Source of the DNA: Promethearchaeota archaeon
Lineage (GTDB): Archaea > Asgardarchaeota > Thorarchaeia > Thorarchaeales > Thorarchaeaceae
DNA length: 16,413 nucleotides
Reading direction: 5' to 3'
Assembly (NCBI GenBank): GCA_027031765.1
Contig: JALVPN010000213.1
Span: forward strand, 1-16,413
Part shown: positions 4,864-9,182 of the stretch, one piece after another
Position numbering within the stretch: the stretch's first letter is position 1
Layout of the letters: every line of letters begins with the position of its first letter
Translations under genes and position numbers: made by a program
The notes under the pieces: generated by a model
The model's database searches: none
Told to the model about the DNA's origin: nothing
What the model saw: only the letters and a program-made list of their open reading frames with translations

Positions 4864-6330
4864 CTACCCCGTACTGTCATCCTCACGGATTGCATCTAGC
4901 ATGCCCTGGAACGCACGGGCCAGCTCTCCAATCTCGTCGTCCTGTTCCGTGTAGGACGGGTCGACCTGGAGGTGCGTCACATCCAGCTCCTCCTGTCGCA
5001 ACACGGCCTCCACATTCCGCATTGCGAGGCCCATGAGGTATTCAAGGGGCCGGGTCACCTGGTTTGCGACCAGCACCGCTACTGCTACTGCGAGCACACC
5101 ACCAACGGCAGTCACAAAGATGACGGCCGATGTGGCCTCAAAGTTCGCAGCCGCAATCCTCTCCGTCAACTGGTTGACAGGAGCAAAGACCTCGTCGGAG
5201 GGGACGATTGCCACGCACACATAGTCGCCCTTGCCCACCGGGGTCGCCACGAGGTATCTCTGTTCACCGTCGCGCGTGTACGTCACATTCCTGTACTCAC
5301 CGTCAGGCACAGAGGTTATTGTCTGCAGTGTCGTTGCATCGATGCCCTCGATGTCCGACAGGTATGGCAGGTGGCCCTCAGCATCTGCAGCCAGATAGTC
5401 CGCAGGTGTGAGTTCAGGGTGGGCCACCACCTCACCGGAACGCAGGAGCAGTGCGGCATAGCCGGACTCCAGCACCTGCACATTGAGGATCCTGTCACGT
5501 ATGTCGTTGTAGGGGATGTCGACAGCGACCATCCCCTGCAGCTGGTGGCCCGGGCCATAGATTGCACGGCCGATGGATATCATGAGCACCTGTTCGATGG
5601 GGTCAAAGTACGGGTCTACGAACACTATGTCCCCGTTGCCCGCAACAATGTCCTGATACCATGGCTCATCCGGTGGGAAGAATGCGGTCGAGCGCCGTGC
5701 CCGGTCGAGGTCTGAACCACCGAATATGCTGCCGGGATAGTTGATGAACAGGCCATCGGTGAACGCAACGTACAGCCACCGGAGCTCGGGCATCTGTTCG
5801 TGGACGGAACGGAACATGATGTCGATGTTGGAAATCCGGTACAGCCTGTCAGCGAGAGCAGCCTCGGCTACCGAGTAGTTCGTGGAGTCGGTCCCCACAA
5901 TGTACCAGCTGCTGTACGTCCACGACACGTTGATACCATAGTTGGGGTCGTACGCTATGTCACTGGGGTGAGGGCCCTTGGACGAGTACTCGAAGAAGTA
6001 GTCGTAGTAGACCGGTCGTGGGGACACTGTGGAGGTGGACCCCAGCAGGGCCTCACACTCGCGGGCGAGCGCACGCACCACAGACTCCGCACTCGCAAGC
6101 TTCTGGTTGACTACCAGTGCCGTCTTCTCGGAGGTTGCCACCATGTTCCGTGTGACCTGGGTCTCCAGTGCCTGACTGCTCTCCGTCGTTGTGAGCCCGC
6201 CAATCATGTTGATAAAGCCCAGTGAGAGGACGCCGGTGGCGGTCAACGAGGCCACCGTGATGAGGAAGAACGTGACAATCACATTCCTCTTGAAGCTGCC
6301 CTTCTTCTGTATCCGCACTCGACTTGACAA
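4864..6330 (-). CDS. Membrane sensor TM-dCache-TM-HAMP with no output domain
   Basis: 488 aa. TM ~aa17-43, extracytoplasmic Cache (WLYVAF..GLFINYPG, EPWY, PYFD, ISIGRAI, VAVDI, GYAALL..SGEVVAHP), TM ~aa403-424, then HAMP (VTRPLEYL...DEIGELARAFQGM) ending at the C-terminus. TTG start with AGGAGGTGA RBS 7 nt upstream. Confidence 0.88.
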   Translation of the reverse strand: MSSRVRIQKKGSFKRNVIVTFFLITVASLTATGVLSLGFINMIGGLTTTESSQALETQVTRNMVATSEKTALVVNQKLASAESVVRALARECEALLGSTSTVSPRPVYYDYFFEYSSKGPHPSDIAYDPNYGINVSWTYSSWYIVGTDSTNYSVAEAALADRLYRISNIDIMFRSVHEQMPELRWLYVAFTDGLFINYPGSIFGGSDLDRARRSTAFFPPDEPWYQDIVAGNGDIVFVDPYFDPIEQVLMISIGRAIYGPGHQLQGMVAVDIPYNDIRDRILNVQVLESGYAALLLRSGEVVAHPELTPADYLAADAEGHLPYLSDIEGIDATTLQTITSVPDGEYRNVTYTRDGEQRYLVATPVGKGDYVCVAIVPSDEVFAPVNQLTERIAAANFEATSAVIFVTAVGGVLAVAVAVLVANQVTRPLEYLMGLAMRNVEAVLRQEELDVTHLQVDPSYTEQDDEIGELARAFQGMLDAIREDDSTG

Positions 6331-6337
6331 CTCGTCG

Positions 6338-6346: not shown

Positions 6347-9182
6347 AGTAGTCCACGGTGCTCCCACCCACCTCAAGCTGGGCCATGAGCACTGCTGCCT
6401 CCTTGAAGGCATTCTCAATGTCGCTCTTCACGTCTGCTGTGTCCACCACAGAGATATACTGGCCCTGGGGCACGTTCTCGCACACTGACTGGAGCAACTC
6501 CTCAAAGGTCATCCTCTCACCGGTGGTCGGAGATATGACCTTCTTGTCGACCGGCATCCGGAGTTCCTCGCCGACCCCGATTATGATTAGGAAGACATCG
6601 AGGTGCCGGTTCCTGACGAAGTTCTCAACCGTCCGGCGGTTCCGCTTCTTCTGGCGGTCGCGCTCCGTGAAGATCCCCTCAAGGTAGTCGAGAGAGTACT
6701 TCTCTGACGAGTTGTCCTGGCCATCGGTCAGCGCAATTATCCAGCGGTGCTCACTGGACTCAAGGCTGTCCAGCTGTTCCAAGGCGTGGCCCAGGGCATC
6801 ATAGAATGCCGTAGCGCCATTTGGCCGACGCAGGCCGTCCAGGGCCCGCCATATCGGGTTCTCACGTGGGTCGTCATACTCGCCTCTACGTGTGAGCGGC
6901 AGGACCTCCTGGTATCTGTCGTTAAATATAGTAATCCCGACCTCGTCCTGAGGGTTCACCTTTGAGTCAAGGATTTCCTGCGCCCCGCGGATTGCTGCGA
7001 GGATTCTGCGCTGTGCATTCATGCTCCCGGAGTAGTCAATCACAAAGACGACGCTCTTCTTGTACTGGATTGAGCGGTACAGACGTTCGGCCTCGCGGCG
7101 GACTTCATGGCTCGGTTCGTCCAGCATGTCGAGGACATCCGCGAGCTCGCGCATTGCGAGGACGACCAGTGGATACTCCTCGGTCAGATTGCCGAGGCGC
7201 ATGCACTCACGGAACGAGTGTTCAGCATCACGCCACTGGCCCTTGGCCACGAACAGCTCGCCCATGTGGAAGTGGATGTATGCAAGGGAACGGTTGTTGT
7301 CGTCGGCCTCAGCAATCCGTTTCGCCTCTTCAAAGTGTGACAGGGCCTCGCTGTGACGCCCCTGTCGCATGAGTATAAGGCCAGTGGCATCATGACGTCT
7401 TGCAAGGCCGCCGGTGTTATTGAGCGACATGTCTATCGCCTGGGCGTCCTCAAGGAGCTTCAGGGCCTCGTCGTACTCATTTAGGTCCATCTTCACAAGT
7501 GCCATGTTGTGGTACACCGACGCAATCCTGAGCATGGCATCACGCTCGTCGCGGCCCTCTTCCTTTGACTGCTGGAGCAGACGCTGGGCAATCTCCAGTG
7601 CACGCTCATAGTACTTCAGAGCGTTGCCATGGTCACCACGCTGGCGGTACACGTTGCCGATGTTGAGACACATCGTCTGCTGGCCGACCTCGATACCAAG
7701 CCGTTCGCTGATCTCCAGCAGGTTCATGTAGTTGGACAGCGCACGGTTGAGGTCCCCCCGGACGAAAGCGGCGTTCCCAAAGCGGCAGGCCTCTTGGAAG
7801 CTCAACAGTGCATCGACCGTGCTGCCGACCTCCTCAAACATGGCGCCGGTGGCCGTGACCCCTCTGGTGAAGTCCTGACGCGACATCTTCTGCACCATGT
7901 GCGTCATCTCGCGGATCGGTTCGACAACGGCACGGGCCCTGCGGAACGAGACCCCTGCCACCACGGTACCGACGACCACAAGCACGGCACCAAGTGCCAT
8001 CAACAAGGTGCTAGTGCCCCGGACGACCTGTTGGAGCATCGCCTGTGCCGGCGCCACCACCTCGTCTGCAGGCACCACCACCACAAGTACGAAGCCGGTG
8101 CTTTCCACGCGGGACGAGGTCAGTAGCCAGCGCTCGCCACCCTTGGTGAAGTACGTCTGGCTGCTGTTCTGGGACAGGAGCGTTGGGAGGGCTGTCGAGA
8201 ACTGGTTGCGTCCCTCGGTGTCCGTAGGTGCGAACTCAAGGTCAAGGATACTCTGGCTCTCGGTCGTGAAGTATGGGTGTGCAACGACGTGGCCGCTCCC
8301 GTCCAGCAGATATGCGTACCCGCGGTCAAGCACTTGGACATCAAGGACTTTGGAGTTGACCGTAGCCAGTGTGACATCAGCAGAGACGACACCAATCATG
8401 GTGCCGTTGTCAAAGTAGACGGGACGCCCCATAGAGATGACAAGACCGGTCGACGGGTCGCCATAGGGGGGTGTGAAAGCAATACTCGTGTTGTCTACTG
8501 CGATGGACGCTGCATTGAGATACCAGTTCTCAGACGACGGGTCATAGTCACCATCGTCGCTGAGGAAGTAGTCGAGCTTGTCGAATGGGTAGTTCCTCAT
8601 GAGGTGGCTCGGACAGAGAGAGGGGTTGAATGTCATGTACAGCCAGATGTAGTCCGAGTTGGCGTCGTGGAGGGCCCTGAACACGTTGTCCATATTGCTG
8701 GAGACGTTCAGGAAGTACTCGGTGCGCGTGTCAAGTGTGAACGGGTCACCAGGTGTCGGGTACCTGTCACGTGGCATGTAGTAGCAGCTGACATCGAAGG
8801 AGATGTAGTCGGAGGAGTAGGAACTCTCACTATGGAGACCGGGCACCACCTTGGCACTGTGGGCGTACTCCAGGAACGGGTCCCAGAAGTAGCTGTACTG
8901 CGGTGTGGCATTCAGCCGTCCGTTGAAGAGCGCCTCACAGTAGTCCTCCATCACGTACACGCCGTCATAGTAGCTCTGGATGCGCTCATCAATGAACGAG
9001 GCCACATCATCCGACACACGCCTCAGATTTGCGACCTCCTCGTCCTCAAGGGCCGACGCCGCTAGGGCTGCGTTGTCATTTGACACGCCAAGGATGGTCC
9101 ATGTCGACACAGCGGAAATCACAATGATTGGGATGAGCGTTACAGTCGTGAATGCGAGCACAATCCGCCGGGAAATCCTCAT
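6345..9182 (-). CDS. Membrane receptor TM-dCache-TM-HAMP-TPR repeats-vWA (intact MIDAS)
   Basis: 945 aa. TM aa7-33, Cache aa~35-385 (WLYMTF, NYP, ENWY, PPYGD, ISMGRPV, SADV, GYAYLLD..GHVVAHP), TM aa~392-412, HAMP aa~413-466. About 5-6 TPRs at aa~467-705 (NIGNVYRQRGDHGNALKYYERALEI etc.). vWA from aa709 with D716-Y-S-G-S720, T791 (GATAFYDAL) and D820 (LTDG). GGGGTGGTG RBS. Confidence 0.9.
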   Translation of the reverse strand: MRISRRIVLAFTTVTLIPIIVISAVSTWTILGVSNDNAALAASALEDEEVANLRRVSDDVASFIDERIQSYYDGVYVMEDYCEALFNGRLNATPQYSYFWDPFLEYAHSAKVVPGLHSESSYSSDYISFDVSCYYMPRDRYPTPGDPFTLDTRTEYFLNVSSNMDNVFRALHDANSDYIWLYMTFNPSLCPSHLMRNYPFDKLDYFLSDDGDYDPSSENWYLNAASIAVDNTSIAFTPPYGDPSTGLVISMGRPVYFDNGTMIGVVSADVTLATVNSKVLDVQVLDRGYAYLLDGSGHVVAHPYFTTESQSILDLEFAPTDTEGRNQFSTALPTLLSQNSSQTYFTKGGERWLLTSSRVESTGFVLVVVVPADEVVAPAQAMLQQVVRGTSTLLMALGAVLVVVGTVVAGVSFRRARAVVEPIREMTHMVQKMSRQDFTRGVTATGAMFEEVGSTVDALLSFQEACRFGNAAFVRGDLNRALSNYMNLLEISERLGIEVGQQTMCLNIGNVYRQRGDHGNALKYYERALEIAQRLLQQSKEEGRDERDAMLRIASVYHNMALVKMDLNEYDEALKLLEDAQAIDMSLNNTGGLARRHDATGLILMRQGRHSEALSHFEEAKRIAEADDNNRSLAYIHFHMGELFVAKGQWRDAEHSFRECMRLGNLTEEYPLVVLAMRELADVLDMLDEPSHEVRREAERLYRSIQYKKSVVFVIDYSGSMNAQRRILAAIRGAQEILDSKVNPQDEVGITIFNDRYQEVLPLTRRGEYDDPRENPIWRALDGLRRPNGATAFYDALGHALEQLDSLESSEHRWIIALTDGQDNSSEKYSLDYLEGIFTERDRQKKRNRRTVENFVRNRHLDVFLIIIGVGEELRMPVDKKVISPTTGERMTFEELLQSVCENVPQGQYISVVDTADVKSDIENAFKEAAVLMAQLEVGGSTVDY

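Follow-up and report, generated by a model that had tools for sequence, protein, structure and literature searches.

Adjacent Cache receptors of a Thorarchaeal genome resemble alpha2delta and CACHD1 in the N-terminal part of the sensor domain

The locus described here lies in a stretch of 16,413 nucleotides (contig JALVPN010000213.1 of assembly GCA_027031765.1; G+C ∼59%) from a Promethearchaeota archaeon of the family Thorarchaeaceae; this whole stretch is referred to as the window. The open reading frame (ORF) listing together with Pfam revealed four consecutive genes on its minus strand, P0004, P0001, P0002 and P0003 (Table 1). Our subject is the central pair, P0001 (receptor 1) and P0002 (receptor 2), each of which carries an extracellular dCache_1 domain with an extended N-terminal half. 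It is in this half that both proteins resemble the calcium channel subunit alpha2delta and CACHD1. The resemblance is real and specific to the N-terminal part of the domain, because a profile of this part matches alpha2delta-1 only among PDB sequences and because the structural alignment with alpha2delta-1 is longer than that with bacterial sensors.

An extended Cache domain in two paralogous receptors

In receptor 1, Pfam recognises dCache_1 with 67.6 bits (aa 208-369), TPR_12 with 84 bits and VWA_2 with 47.5 bits. In receptor 2, dCache_1 scores 56.7 bits and HAMP 24.5 bits. Both proteins exceed the 45-bit gathering threshold of dCache_1, and the model matches 61 of 61 orthologues in each family, which bears out the domain assignment of an earlier reading made from the letters alone (the original prediction). 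Full-length orthologues of receptor 1 fill more than 120 clusters (55-63% identity), and those of receptor 2 likewise more than 120 (47-56% identity). Both sets are mostly, in fact nearly all, from Thorarchaeota, and by these names the host is an Asgard archaeon, as had been suspected. The ectodomains of the two receptors are paralogous from end to end, and this includes the extension (hhalign E 1.3e-49, 28% identity). In the AlphaFold2 models of both ectodomains (pLDDT 92), a long N-terminal helix leads into a double PAS-like fold, set between two transmembrane (TM) helices. Bacterial dCache structures are fully covered by both models (VIA Z about 18-22). Pfam finds one dCache_1 in each protein and no second one enclosing the first. 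No VWA domain is inserted between the WY motif of the pocket helix and the next strand in either protein, and the models run through this region as a continuous Cache fold. The sole vWA of the pair belongs to receptor 1. It sits past the second TM helix (TM2) and the TPR region and is therefore cytoplasmic; neither protein carries an extracellular VWA with a metal ion-dependent adhesion site (MIDAS).

Table 1. Genes and domains of the receptor locus in the window, with the evidence for each assignment
Feature	Position	Strand	Residues	Basis
Receptor 1 gene (P0001): TM - extended dCache_1 - TM - linker - TPR - vWA	6345-9182	minus	945 aa	ORF and Pfam
Receptor 1, N-part of distal Cache module with extension and WY, VWA_N-like	8481-8933	minus	84-234	A3 profile match at 8496-8933
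Receptor 1, remaining dCache_1 (distal strands and membrane-proximal module)	8004-8528	minus	219-393	C-part hidden Markov model (HMM), 212.6 bits
Receptor 1, cytoplasmic TPR region	7113-7775	minus	about 470-690	Pfam TPR_12, TPR_1, TPR_2
Receptor 1, cytoplasmic C-terminal vWA, MIDAS DYSGS ... T ... TDG	6471-7070	minus	705-904	Pfam VWA_2, VWA
Receptor 2 gene (P0002): TM - extended dCache_1 - TM - HAMP, no output domain	4864-6330	minus	488 aa	ORF and Pfam
Receptor 2, N-part of distal Cache module with extension and WY, VWA_N-like	5623-6051	minus	94-236	A3 profile match at 5623-6048
Receptor 2, remaining dCache_1	5131-5661	minus	224-400	C-part HMM, 190 bits
Receptor 2, HAMP	4882-5070	minus	421-483	Pfam HAMP, E 3.4e-5
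P0004: propeller, zinc-ribbon and winged-helix protein, upstream of receptor 1	9253-10890	minus	545 aa	
P0003: SpeA-like pyridoxal phosphate-dependent Orn/Arg decarboxylase gene, directly downstream of receptor 2	3003-4895	minus		Pfam

The distal Cache module of both receptors contains an extension of ∼90 residues (about 70-100) between helices alpha1 and alpha2. According to the AlphaFold models, it folds into a small sheet of three short strands with two helices, and the motif DPNYGINVSWTYSSWYIV makes the sheet. In receptor 1, three short strands and helices lie between alpha1 and alpha2, and in the receptor 2 model the strands are E77-79, E84-87 and E92-94. WY is found at residue 220 in receptor 1 and 224 in receptor 2, as compared with 120-146 in five bacterial methyl-accepting chemotaxis proteins (MCPs). 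Because of the inserted extension, WY lies at about residue 210-250 in this subtype and not at ∼120-145 as in bacterial chemoreceptors.

The original prediction had drawn attention to two runs of residues, and both are present in the translations: 'DPNYGINVSWTYSSWYIV ... ISNIDIMFRSVHEQMPELRWLYVAFTDGLFINYPGS ... PWY' spans aa 127-225 of receptor 2, and 'ISFDVSCYYMP ... SSNMDNVFRALHDANSDYIWLYMTF ... RNYP ... NWY' spans aa 127-221 of receptor 1. It set these beside a string of alpha2delta-1, which proved accurate and has the same order and spacing: HMMER aligns aa 127-235 of receptor 2 colinearly with residues 151-254 of alpha2delta-1. In a pairwise phmmer search of the PDB this match has an E-value of 0.3 and is not significant, and the N-terminal part of receptor 1 finds no match. 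We considered the pairwise match too weak to stand as evidence by itself.

Profile A3 comprises 62 sequences from both paralogue families and covers their N-terminal part, which begins where alpha1 ends and stops shortly after WY. Among 177,635 PDB sequences it matches alpha2delta-1 chains only (E 3.9e-4, 135 residues), and its positions 10-144 map onto alpha2delta-1 residues 111-245 without net length difference. No bacterial dCache in the PDB is matched at E≤10. A3 scores 148 and 166 bits on the two window proteins, which places both in the extended subtype.

The structural comparison points in the same direction. In VIA-align, alpha2delta-1 superposes over 295-311 residues (Z 19-22, root mean square deviation (rmsd) 3.0-4.5, 20-22% identity), with the low-resolution alpha2delta entry 3jbr as an outlier at rmsd 9.5. 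Bacterial dCache domains align over 220-260 residues (∼235) at Z 18-22, that is ∼60 residues fewer. The Foldseek check envisaged in the original prediction gave a divided answer. Query-normalised TM-scores are 0.56-0.67 for alpha2delta/CACHD1 as against 0.37-0.55 for solved bacterial sensor domains, but the E-values of alpha2delta-1/CACHD1 and the bacterial sensors are alike.

With alpha2delta and CACHD1 (7mix_D, 8x90_B, 5gjv_F, 8s7c_A; PF08399, VWA and dCache_1) the window receptors thus share the extended N-terminal half of the distal Cache, the WY pocket helix and a membrane-anchored extracellular domain. They differ in lacking a VWA after WY, in having one dCache_1 instead of two nested ones, and in possessing two TM helices with a cytoplasmic arm (HAMP or TPR-vWA). 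The dCache_1 sensors of bacteria and archaea (PctA/B/C 5ltx, Mlp24 6iop, Mlp37 5ave, Methanosarcina mazei histidine kinase 3lib; PF02743) have the same fold with two modules between TM helices and the same WY/Y/D pocket for an amino group, and they give the highest sequence scores past WY. Unlike the window receptors, these sensors have no extension, their WY is at ∼120-146, and their outputs are kinases, MCP signalling domains and cyclases.

Relatives with and without an inserted VWA domain

A search of 1.84e9 cluster representatives with A3 returned 128 clusters at E≤1e-3, only about 25 of which carry a taxon label. Local HMM mapping sorts the matches into proteins like receptor 1 (∼850-1015 aa, with a vWA at the C terminus), proteins like receptor 2 (∼450-600 aa), tandem forms and a group with the VWA directly after WY, which consists of four proteins (P0320, P0348, P0349 and P0273). 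The labelled members come from Asgard lineages, Platysulcus, the jakobid Stygiella, three fungi (Nowakowskiella, Phlyctochytrium and Jimgerdemannia) and a Mimivirus metagenome-assembled genome (MAG). Among 400 Asgard genomes, 113 from eight families encode the A3 type. In the family of the window it occurs in 70 of 85 genomes, usually as an adjacent pair of ∼490 and ∼957 aa. A search of the window's own genome found no third dCache_1 gene besides P0001 and P0002.

The proteins from chytrid and Endogonales fungi (P0312, P0331, P0351) and from Mimivirus LCMiAC02 (P0309/P0493) have a TM-Cache-TM layout with the extension and no VWA. The VWA-free fungal and protist Cache proteins contrast with a published survey, according to which every eukaryotic dCache_1 carries a VWA insertion; the same survey reported amino-acid-sensing dCache_1 proteins to be absent from fungi (Gumerov et al. 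2022, PMC8915833). The transcriptome of the stramenopile Platysulcus tardus (EukProt), where prokaryotic contamination of the culture is possible, contains a full-length homologue of receptor 1, P0334 (E 4e-64; 965 aa aligned at 26% identity), whose domains follow the same Cache-TM-TPR-vWA order. On the 130-kb contig of P0301 (JGI 3300072015), a distant receptor-2-like gene stands divergent to an 877-aa Cache-TPR-VWA gene, so that even the family's remotest branch preserves the pairing of the receptors. P0305, a protein of 863 aa from a Logan contig, has two Caches in tandem. The first of these units falls within the VWA-inserted clade without containing a VWA and may have lost the insert secondarily.

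The form with an inserted VWA was found at full length in 12 of the 400 Asgard genomes, from three families, in intact frames of ∼600 aa that are 26-38% identical to P0320, which is itself located in a genome of the window's phylum. By their NCBI names, the carriers are Hodarchaeales (P0375/P0387), Kariarchaeaceae (P0377) and Heimdallarchaeota B3_Heim (P0376); in the window's genome and family there is no full-length inserted form. The genes lie on contigs with prokaryotic gene packing and 4-bp overlaps, one of them longer than 440 kb, and the neighbours of P0320, P0349 and P0273 gave no taxonomic signal. The order within the inserted proteins is an N-terminal TM helix, the extended Cache N-part, a MIDAS VWA (DxSGSM ... 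TDG), the remainder of the Cache and a C-terminal TM helix. About half of them close the Cache N-part with YDPRxRPWY. They are annotated merely as 'VWA domain-containing protein', and no paper in the library searched connects Asgard archaea with alpha2delta, CACHD1 or VWA_N.

These proteins connect the window receptors with the eukaryotic ones. Towards the former, hhalign pairs A3 with the N-part of the inserted proteins at a probability of 98.5% (E 3.9e-15, 128 columns). Towards the latter, P0320 matches CACHD1 (E 2e-17) and alpha2delta-1 (E 7e-14), the alpha2delta-1 match being one colinear stretch over N-part, VWA and C-part. P0376 and a CACHD1-like protein of the annelid Owenia form a single alignment of 378 aa (E 1e-34), in which the two sequences are one residue apart at the WY-to-MIDAS junction and align almost without gaps at the exit junction, with the common pattern 'YY.FF ... 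DNAI ... PYVDASG.G'. For a profile of the inserted Asgard proteins, the next matches of full architecture are metazoan CACHD1-like proteins, and the bacterial matches listed cover the VWA only.

Downstream of the inserted gene stands a plain paralogue with an extended Cache, for example on B3_Heim contig NJBF01000024.1 (1477-4520 of the stretch examined). The metagenomic protein P0273 (993 aa, encoded at 1416-4397 of its contig piece) resembles the inserted gene in its first half (47-52%) and the plain paralogue in its second (48% in B3_Heim). Its best PDB match is CACHD1, to which it aligns in three stretches. Two of these are in CACHD1 order, and the third pairs its second Cache with the first Cache of CACHD1. 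Because the two halves match the adjacent inserted gene and its paralogue, P0273 points to gene fusion as a possible way in which the double Cache of alpha2delta/CACHD1 came about.

The Heimdall proteins and the window receptors share the extended Cache subtype, the phylum and the arrangement as adjacent paralogue pairs. In the former, WY is followed by a MIDAS VWA, the arginine of the amino-acid motif is retained in half of the proteins, and the chain ends in a C-terminal TM helix and short tail; the window receptors show neither the VWA nor the arginine, and it is they that have a TPR, vWA or HAMP arm. The vWA of receptor 1 does not bridge this difference. The original prediction had seen in it the second of two alpha2delta building blocks, already joined to a Cache in one gene. 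That argument fails, because this vWA is cytoplasmic and unrelated to the inserted VWA. Its best PDB match is ITIH4 (E 0.046), and alpha2delta and CACHD1 are not matched in the PDB. BLASTP gives it 20% identity with the inserted Asgard VWA (E 2e-4) and 34-37% with the vWAs that end the receptor-1 homologues. We have therefore rejected it as a second link, and as judged by sequence its tie to alpha2delta is coincidental.

Ligand pocket and gene neighbourhood

According to Cerna-Vargas et al. 2023 (PMC10589655), R126 of the bacterial receptor PctA holds the carboxylate of the ligand, and amine sensors have not conserved this residue. At the corresponding position both window receptors have a glutamate (receptor 1, aa 218, ENWY, ∼8529-8531; receptor 2, aa 222, EPWY, ∼5665-5667), in place of the arginine that is also found in alpha2delta-1. 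The exchange is general, with E in 56 of 61 receptor-1 orthologues and E or D in 57 of 61 receptor-2 orthologues. Neither receptor conforms to the AA_motif of the amino-acid sensors dCache_1AA (Gumerov et al. 2022), as both lack an arginine at the R126 position. The Tyr and Asp that hold the amino group are read as kept in the pocket. Loss of the arginine with retained amino-group contacts is also what characterises the dCache_1AM amine sensors, among which 3LIB is treated as an amine-motif domain and archaeal reports come only from Halobacteriota (PMC10589655). These sensors lack the extension. For the window receptors, the likeness to the AM_motif consists of the R126 loss and the kept Y/D contacts as read from sequence.

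The gene directly downstream of receptor 2 encodes a putative agmatine-making enzyme, P0003, whose start shares 32 bases with the end of the receptor gene. This overlap suggests that P0003 is translationally coupled with the sensor pair. The replaced arginine and the adjoining decarboxylase gene make an amine (agmatine, for instance) or a polyamine the most likely ligand of the receptors, ahead of an amino acid. A small ligand would bind the distal pocket of each receptor, and the signal would cross the membrane via TM2 to a cytoplasmic arm free of enzymes. In receptor 2 this arm would be the HAMP alone, and in receptor 1 the TPR region and the MIDAS vWA would dock partner proteins. The conserved adjacency of the genes suggests that the two receptors may act together. 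Upstream of receptor 1, P0004 has weak propeller/FG-GAP matches, a C4 zinc ribbon and C-terminal units that are winged-helix-like. It is a possible candidate for a cytoplasmic partner of the TPR-vWA arm.

Evolutionary readings and significance

Taken together, we propose that the N-terminal half of both Caches is a homologue of the VWA_N/first-Cache region of alpha2delta and CACHD1. The window proteins would then be cousins of the alpha2delta lineage that lack the insert and belong to a subtype centred on Asgard archaea, and not the direct forerunner of that lineage. The adjacent genes would encode two bitopic surface sensors that Asgard archaea have conserved as a pair and that have no enzymatic output. 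We assign this explanation as a whole a probability of roughly 0.7. Of the original claim that the proteins are relatives of the alpha2delta ancestor, the kinship is upheld for the Cache N-halves by A3, the ∼60 extra aligned residues and the hhalign match; the part that gives way is the union of both building blocks in one gene. Better candidates for an alpha2delta forerunner are other Asgard genes, outside this window and genome.

Several results weigh against this proposal. Some of them would fit an explanation in which the receptors have generic Cache homology only, and the extension is specific to their lineage without a special tie to VWA_N. Whole-domain profiles rank bacterial dCache_1 first. 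In the PDB, the receptor 1 ectodomain profile (A1) gives 65 bits to Mlp24, 54 to CACHD1 and 37.5 to alpha2delta-1, and the receptor 2 ectodomain profile (A2) gives 53.5 bits to 3LIB, a Methanosarcina histidine kinase sensor and its top match, 38 to CACHD1 and 27 to alpha2delta-1. The rest of the receptor 1 dCache_1 has bacterial Mlp24 and PctA as top profile matches. All A1 and A2 matches fall past WY, and the whole-domain ranking therefore says nothing on the extension. The comparison with bacterial dCache_1 on which the original prediction had staked its case thus went against it for the whole domains and in its favour for the N-part, where the profile matches alpha2delta-1 only in the PDB. 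Its expectation of a VWA_N match was disappointed: the Pfam model gives receptor 2 only 14.9 bits (cut-off 34.7; aa 159-201, last ∼45 model positions) and receptor 1 nothing. Among 122 orthologues VWA_N stays below the cut-off in both families, with sub-threshold matches in 5 of 61 and 8 of 61 and a best E-value of 0.0078. These weak matches overlap the generic 'WxYxG..G.f..yP' strand region, and the VIA Z-scores of alpha2delta-1 and bacterial sensors are tied. The related archaeal-type proteins P0273 and P0305 exceed the VWA_N cut-off (40.2 and 38.2 bits). A purely generic relationship is nevertheless hard to reconcile with an A3 alignment that takes in the extension upstream of the generic part yet finds no bacterial dCache in the PDB, with the additional superposed residues on alpha2delta-1 compared with any bacterial structure, and with the hhalign match to the N-part of the VWA-inserted proteins. 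Where labelled, the A3 matches are nearly all from Asgard archaea, eukaryotes and giant viruses, and the VWA-inserted proteins are recovered among them. We regard this explanation as improbable. No labelled bacterium occurs among the A3 clusters, yet most clusters are unlabelled and bacterial extended members may exist.

Cache-part trees built without the VWA and with five bacterial outgroups (a quick tree of 129 rows and a careful one of 68) join the extended sequences in one clade (support 83/82). The receptor-1 Cache, Platysulcus included, joins the VWA-inserted clade (93/94), and the receptor-2 clade includes the fungi, Stygiella and the Mimivirus MAG. Metazoan CACHD1-like Caches take basal positions among the bacterial outgroups on long branches (82/33 and 89/35), and neither tree unites the eukaryotic alpha2delta-type and Asgard sequences, which also speaks for generic homology and against our proposal. 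Approximately unbiased (AU) tests reject neither a grouping of inserted Asgard sequences with the metazoan first Cache (d1; p 0.21) nor a tree with the bacteria forming one side (p 0.36). Given the weak support and the AU results, the trees leave the deep placement of the metazoan sequences undecided. The phylogenetic check proposed at the outset thus failed to place the metazoan domains with the Asgard clade and equally failed to reject that grouping.

The homology may also be real but spread by horizontal transfer among eukaryotes, giant viruses, Asgard archaea and bacteria, with the Asgard archaea as recipients or bystanders and not as the source of alpha2delta. Such a history would account for the patchy occurrence of the inserted form and for the uninserted form that three fungi, two protists and a Mimivirus MAG carry. 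Published work places the VWA insertion around LECA, the last common ancestor of eukaryotes, after transfer from a bacterial donor that was not identifiable (PMC8915833). The closest relatives of the inserted VWA are bacterial VIT-VWA domains: the inserted Asgard VWA is 35% identical to these and 28% to the metazoan inserted VWA. Furthermore, an inserted gene occurs on a 180-kb contig (JAJDCR010000069) of the Planctomycetota-labelled MAG OFTM357, where a 631-aa VWA-inserted Cache and a 414-aa paralogue (together 2674-6415 of the stretch examined) are followed by a Ser/Thr kinase and adjoined by a bacterial-type PilB/GspE ATPase. The A7 scan of genome contigs in which this locus appeared worked with two peptide patterns, whose reach is close relatives and not a bacterial survey. 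Full-length matches to the inserted form were found in 1 of 401 sampled genomes of this phylum (46% identity to Heimdall proteins). A 16S search of the OFTM357 genome yielded no rRNA, and its assignment therefore depends on the label and on the adjoining PilB-type gene. The OFTM357 locus is likely a transfer into the bacterium or a binning error; the single occurrence fits the former, with the direction unproven. What argues against transfer as the general explanation is the breadth and depth of the uninserted subtype in Asgard archaea, with its eight families and the conserved pair synteny in the family of the window, and the position of the inserted clade, which is nested among unlabelled uninserted sequences beside the Asgard-dominated receptor-1 clade. 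On balance we consider it unlikely, if less so than generic homology.

The nearness of the inserted Asgard VWA to bacterial VIT-VWA domains, together with an exposed loop past the WY helix that could accept insertions, might also be taken to indicate convergence, in which Asgard archaea and eukaryotes each acquired a VWA after the WY helix on their own and also evolved their extensions separately. The continuous BLASTP/HMMER alignments, which span Cache N-part, VWA and C-part in one run and match at both junctions, make this very improbable, as do the stretches that fused P0273 shares with CACHD1 in the same order.

A more far-reaching version of our proposal is tentative. Here, the extended dCache_1 would be a eukaryotic signature module that arose in Asgard archaea and reached eukaryotes by vertical descent on two occasions: once as a Heimdall pair that fused into the VWA_N-VWA-Cache-Cache core of alpha2delta/CACHD1, and once as a receptor pair of the window type that survives in zoosporic fungi and protists. 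If true, the VWA insertion would shift from LECA back into archaea, displacing the proposed bacterial donor.

Gabapentin and pregabalin target the alpha2delta subunits. A rare, Asgard-centred Cache subtype in which the VWA is already inserted at the eukaryotic junctions provides a concrete candidate lineage for the origin of alpha2delta, and its members may offer tractable prokaryotic models of the ligand-binding module. The fungal and protist members show that eukaryotic Cache proteins without VWA exist. For the Asgard archaea themselves, the analysis defines the sensor type of a conserved receptor pair that lacks enzymatic output.

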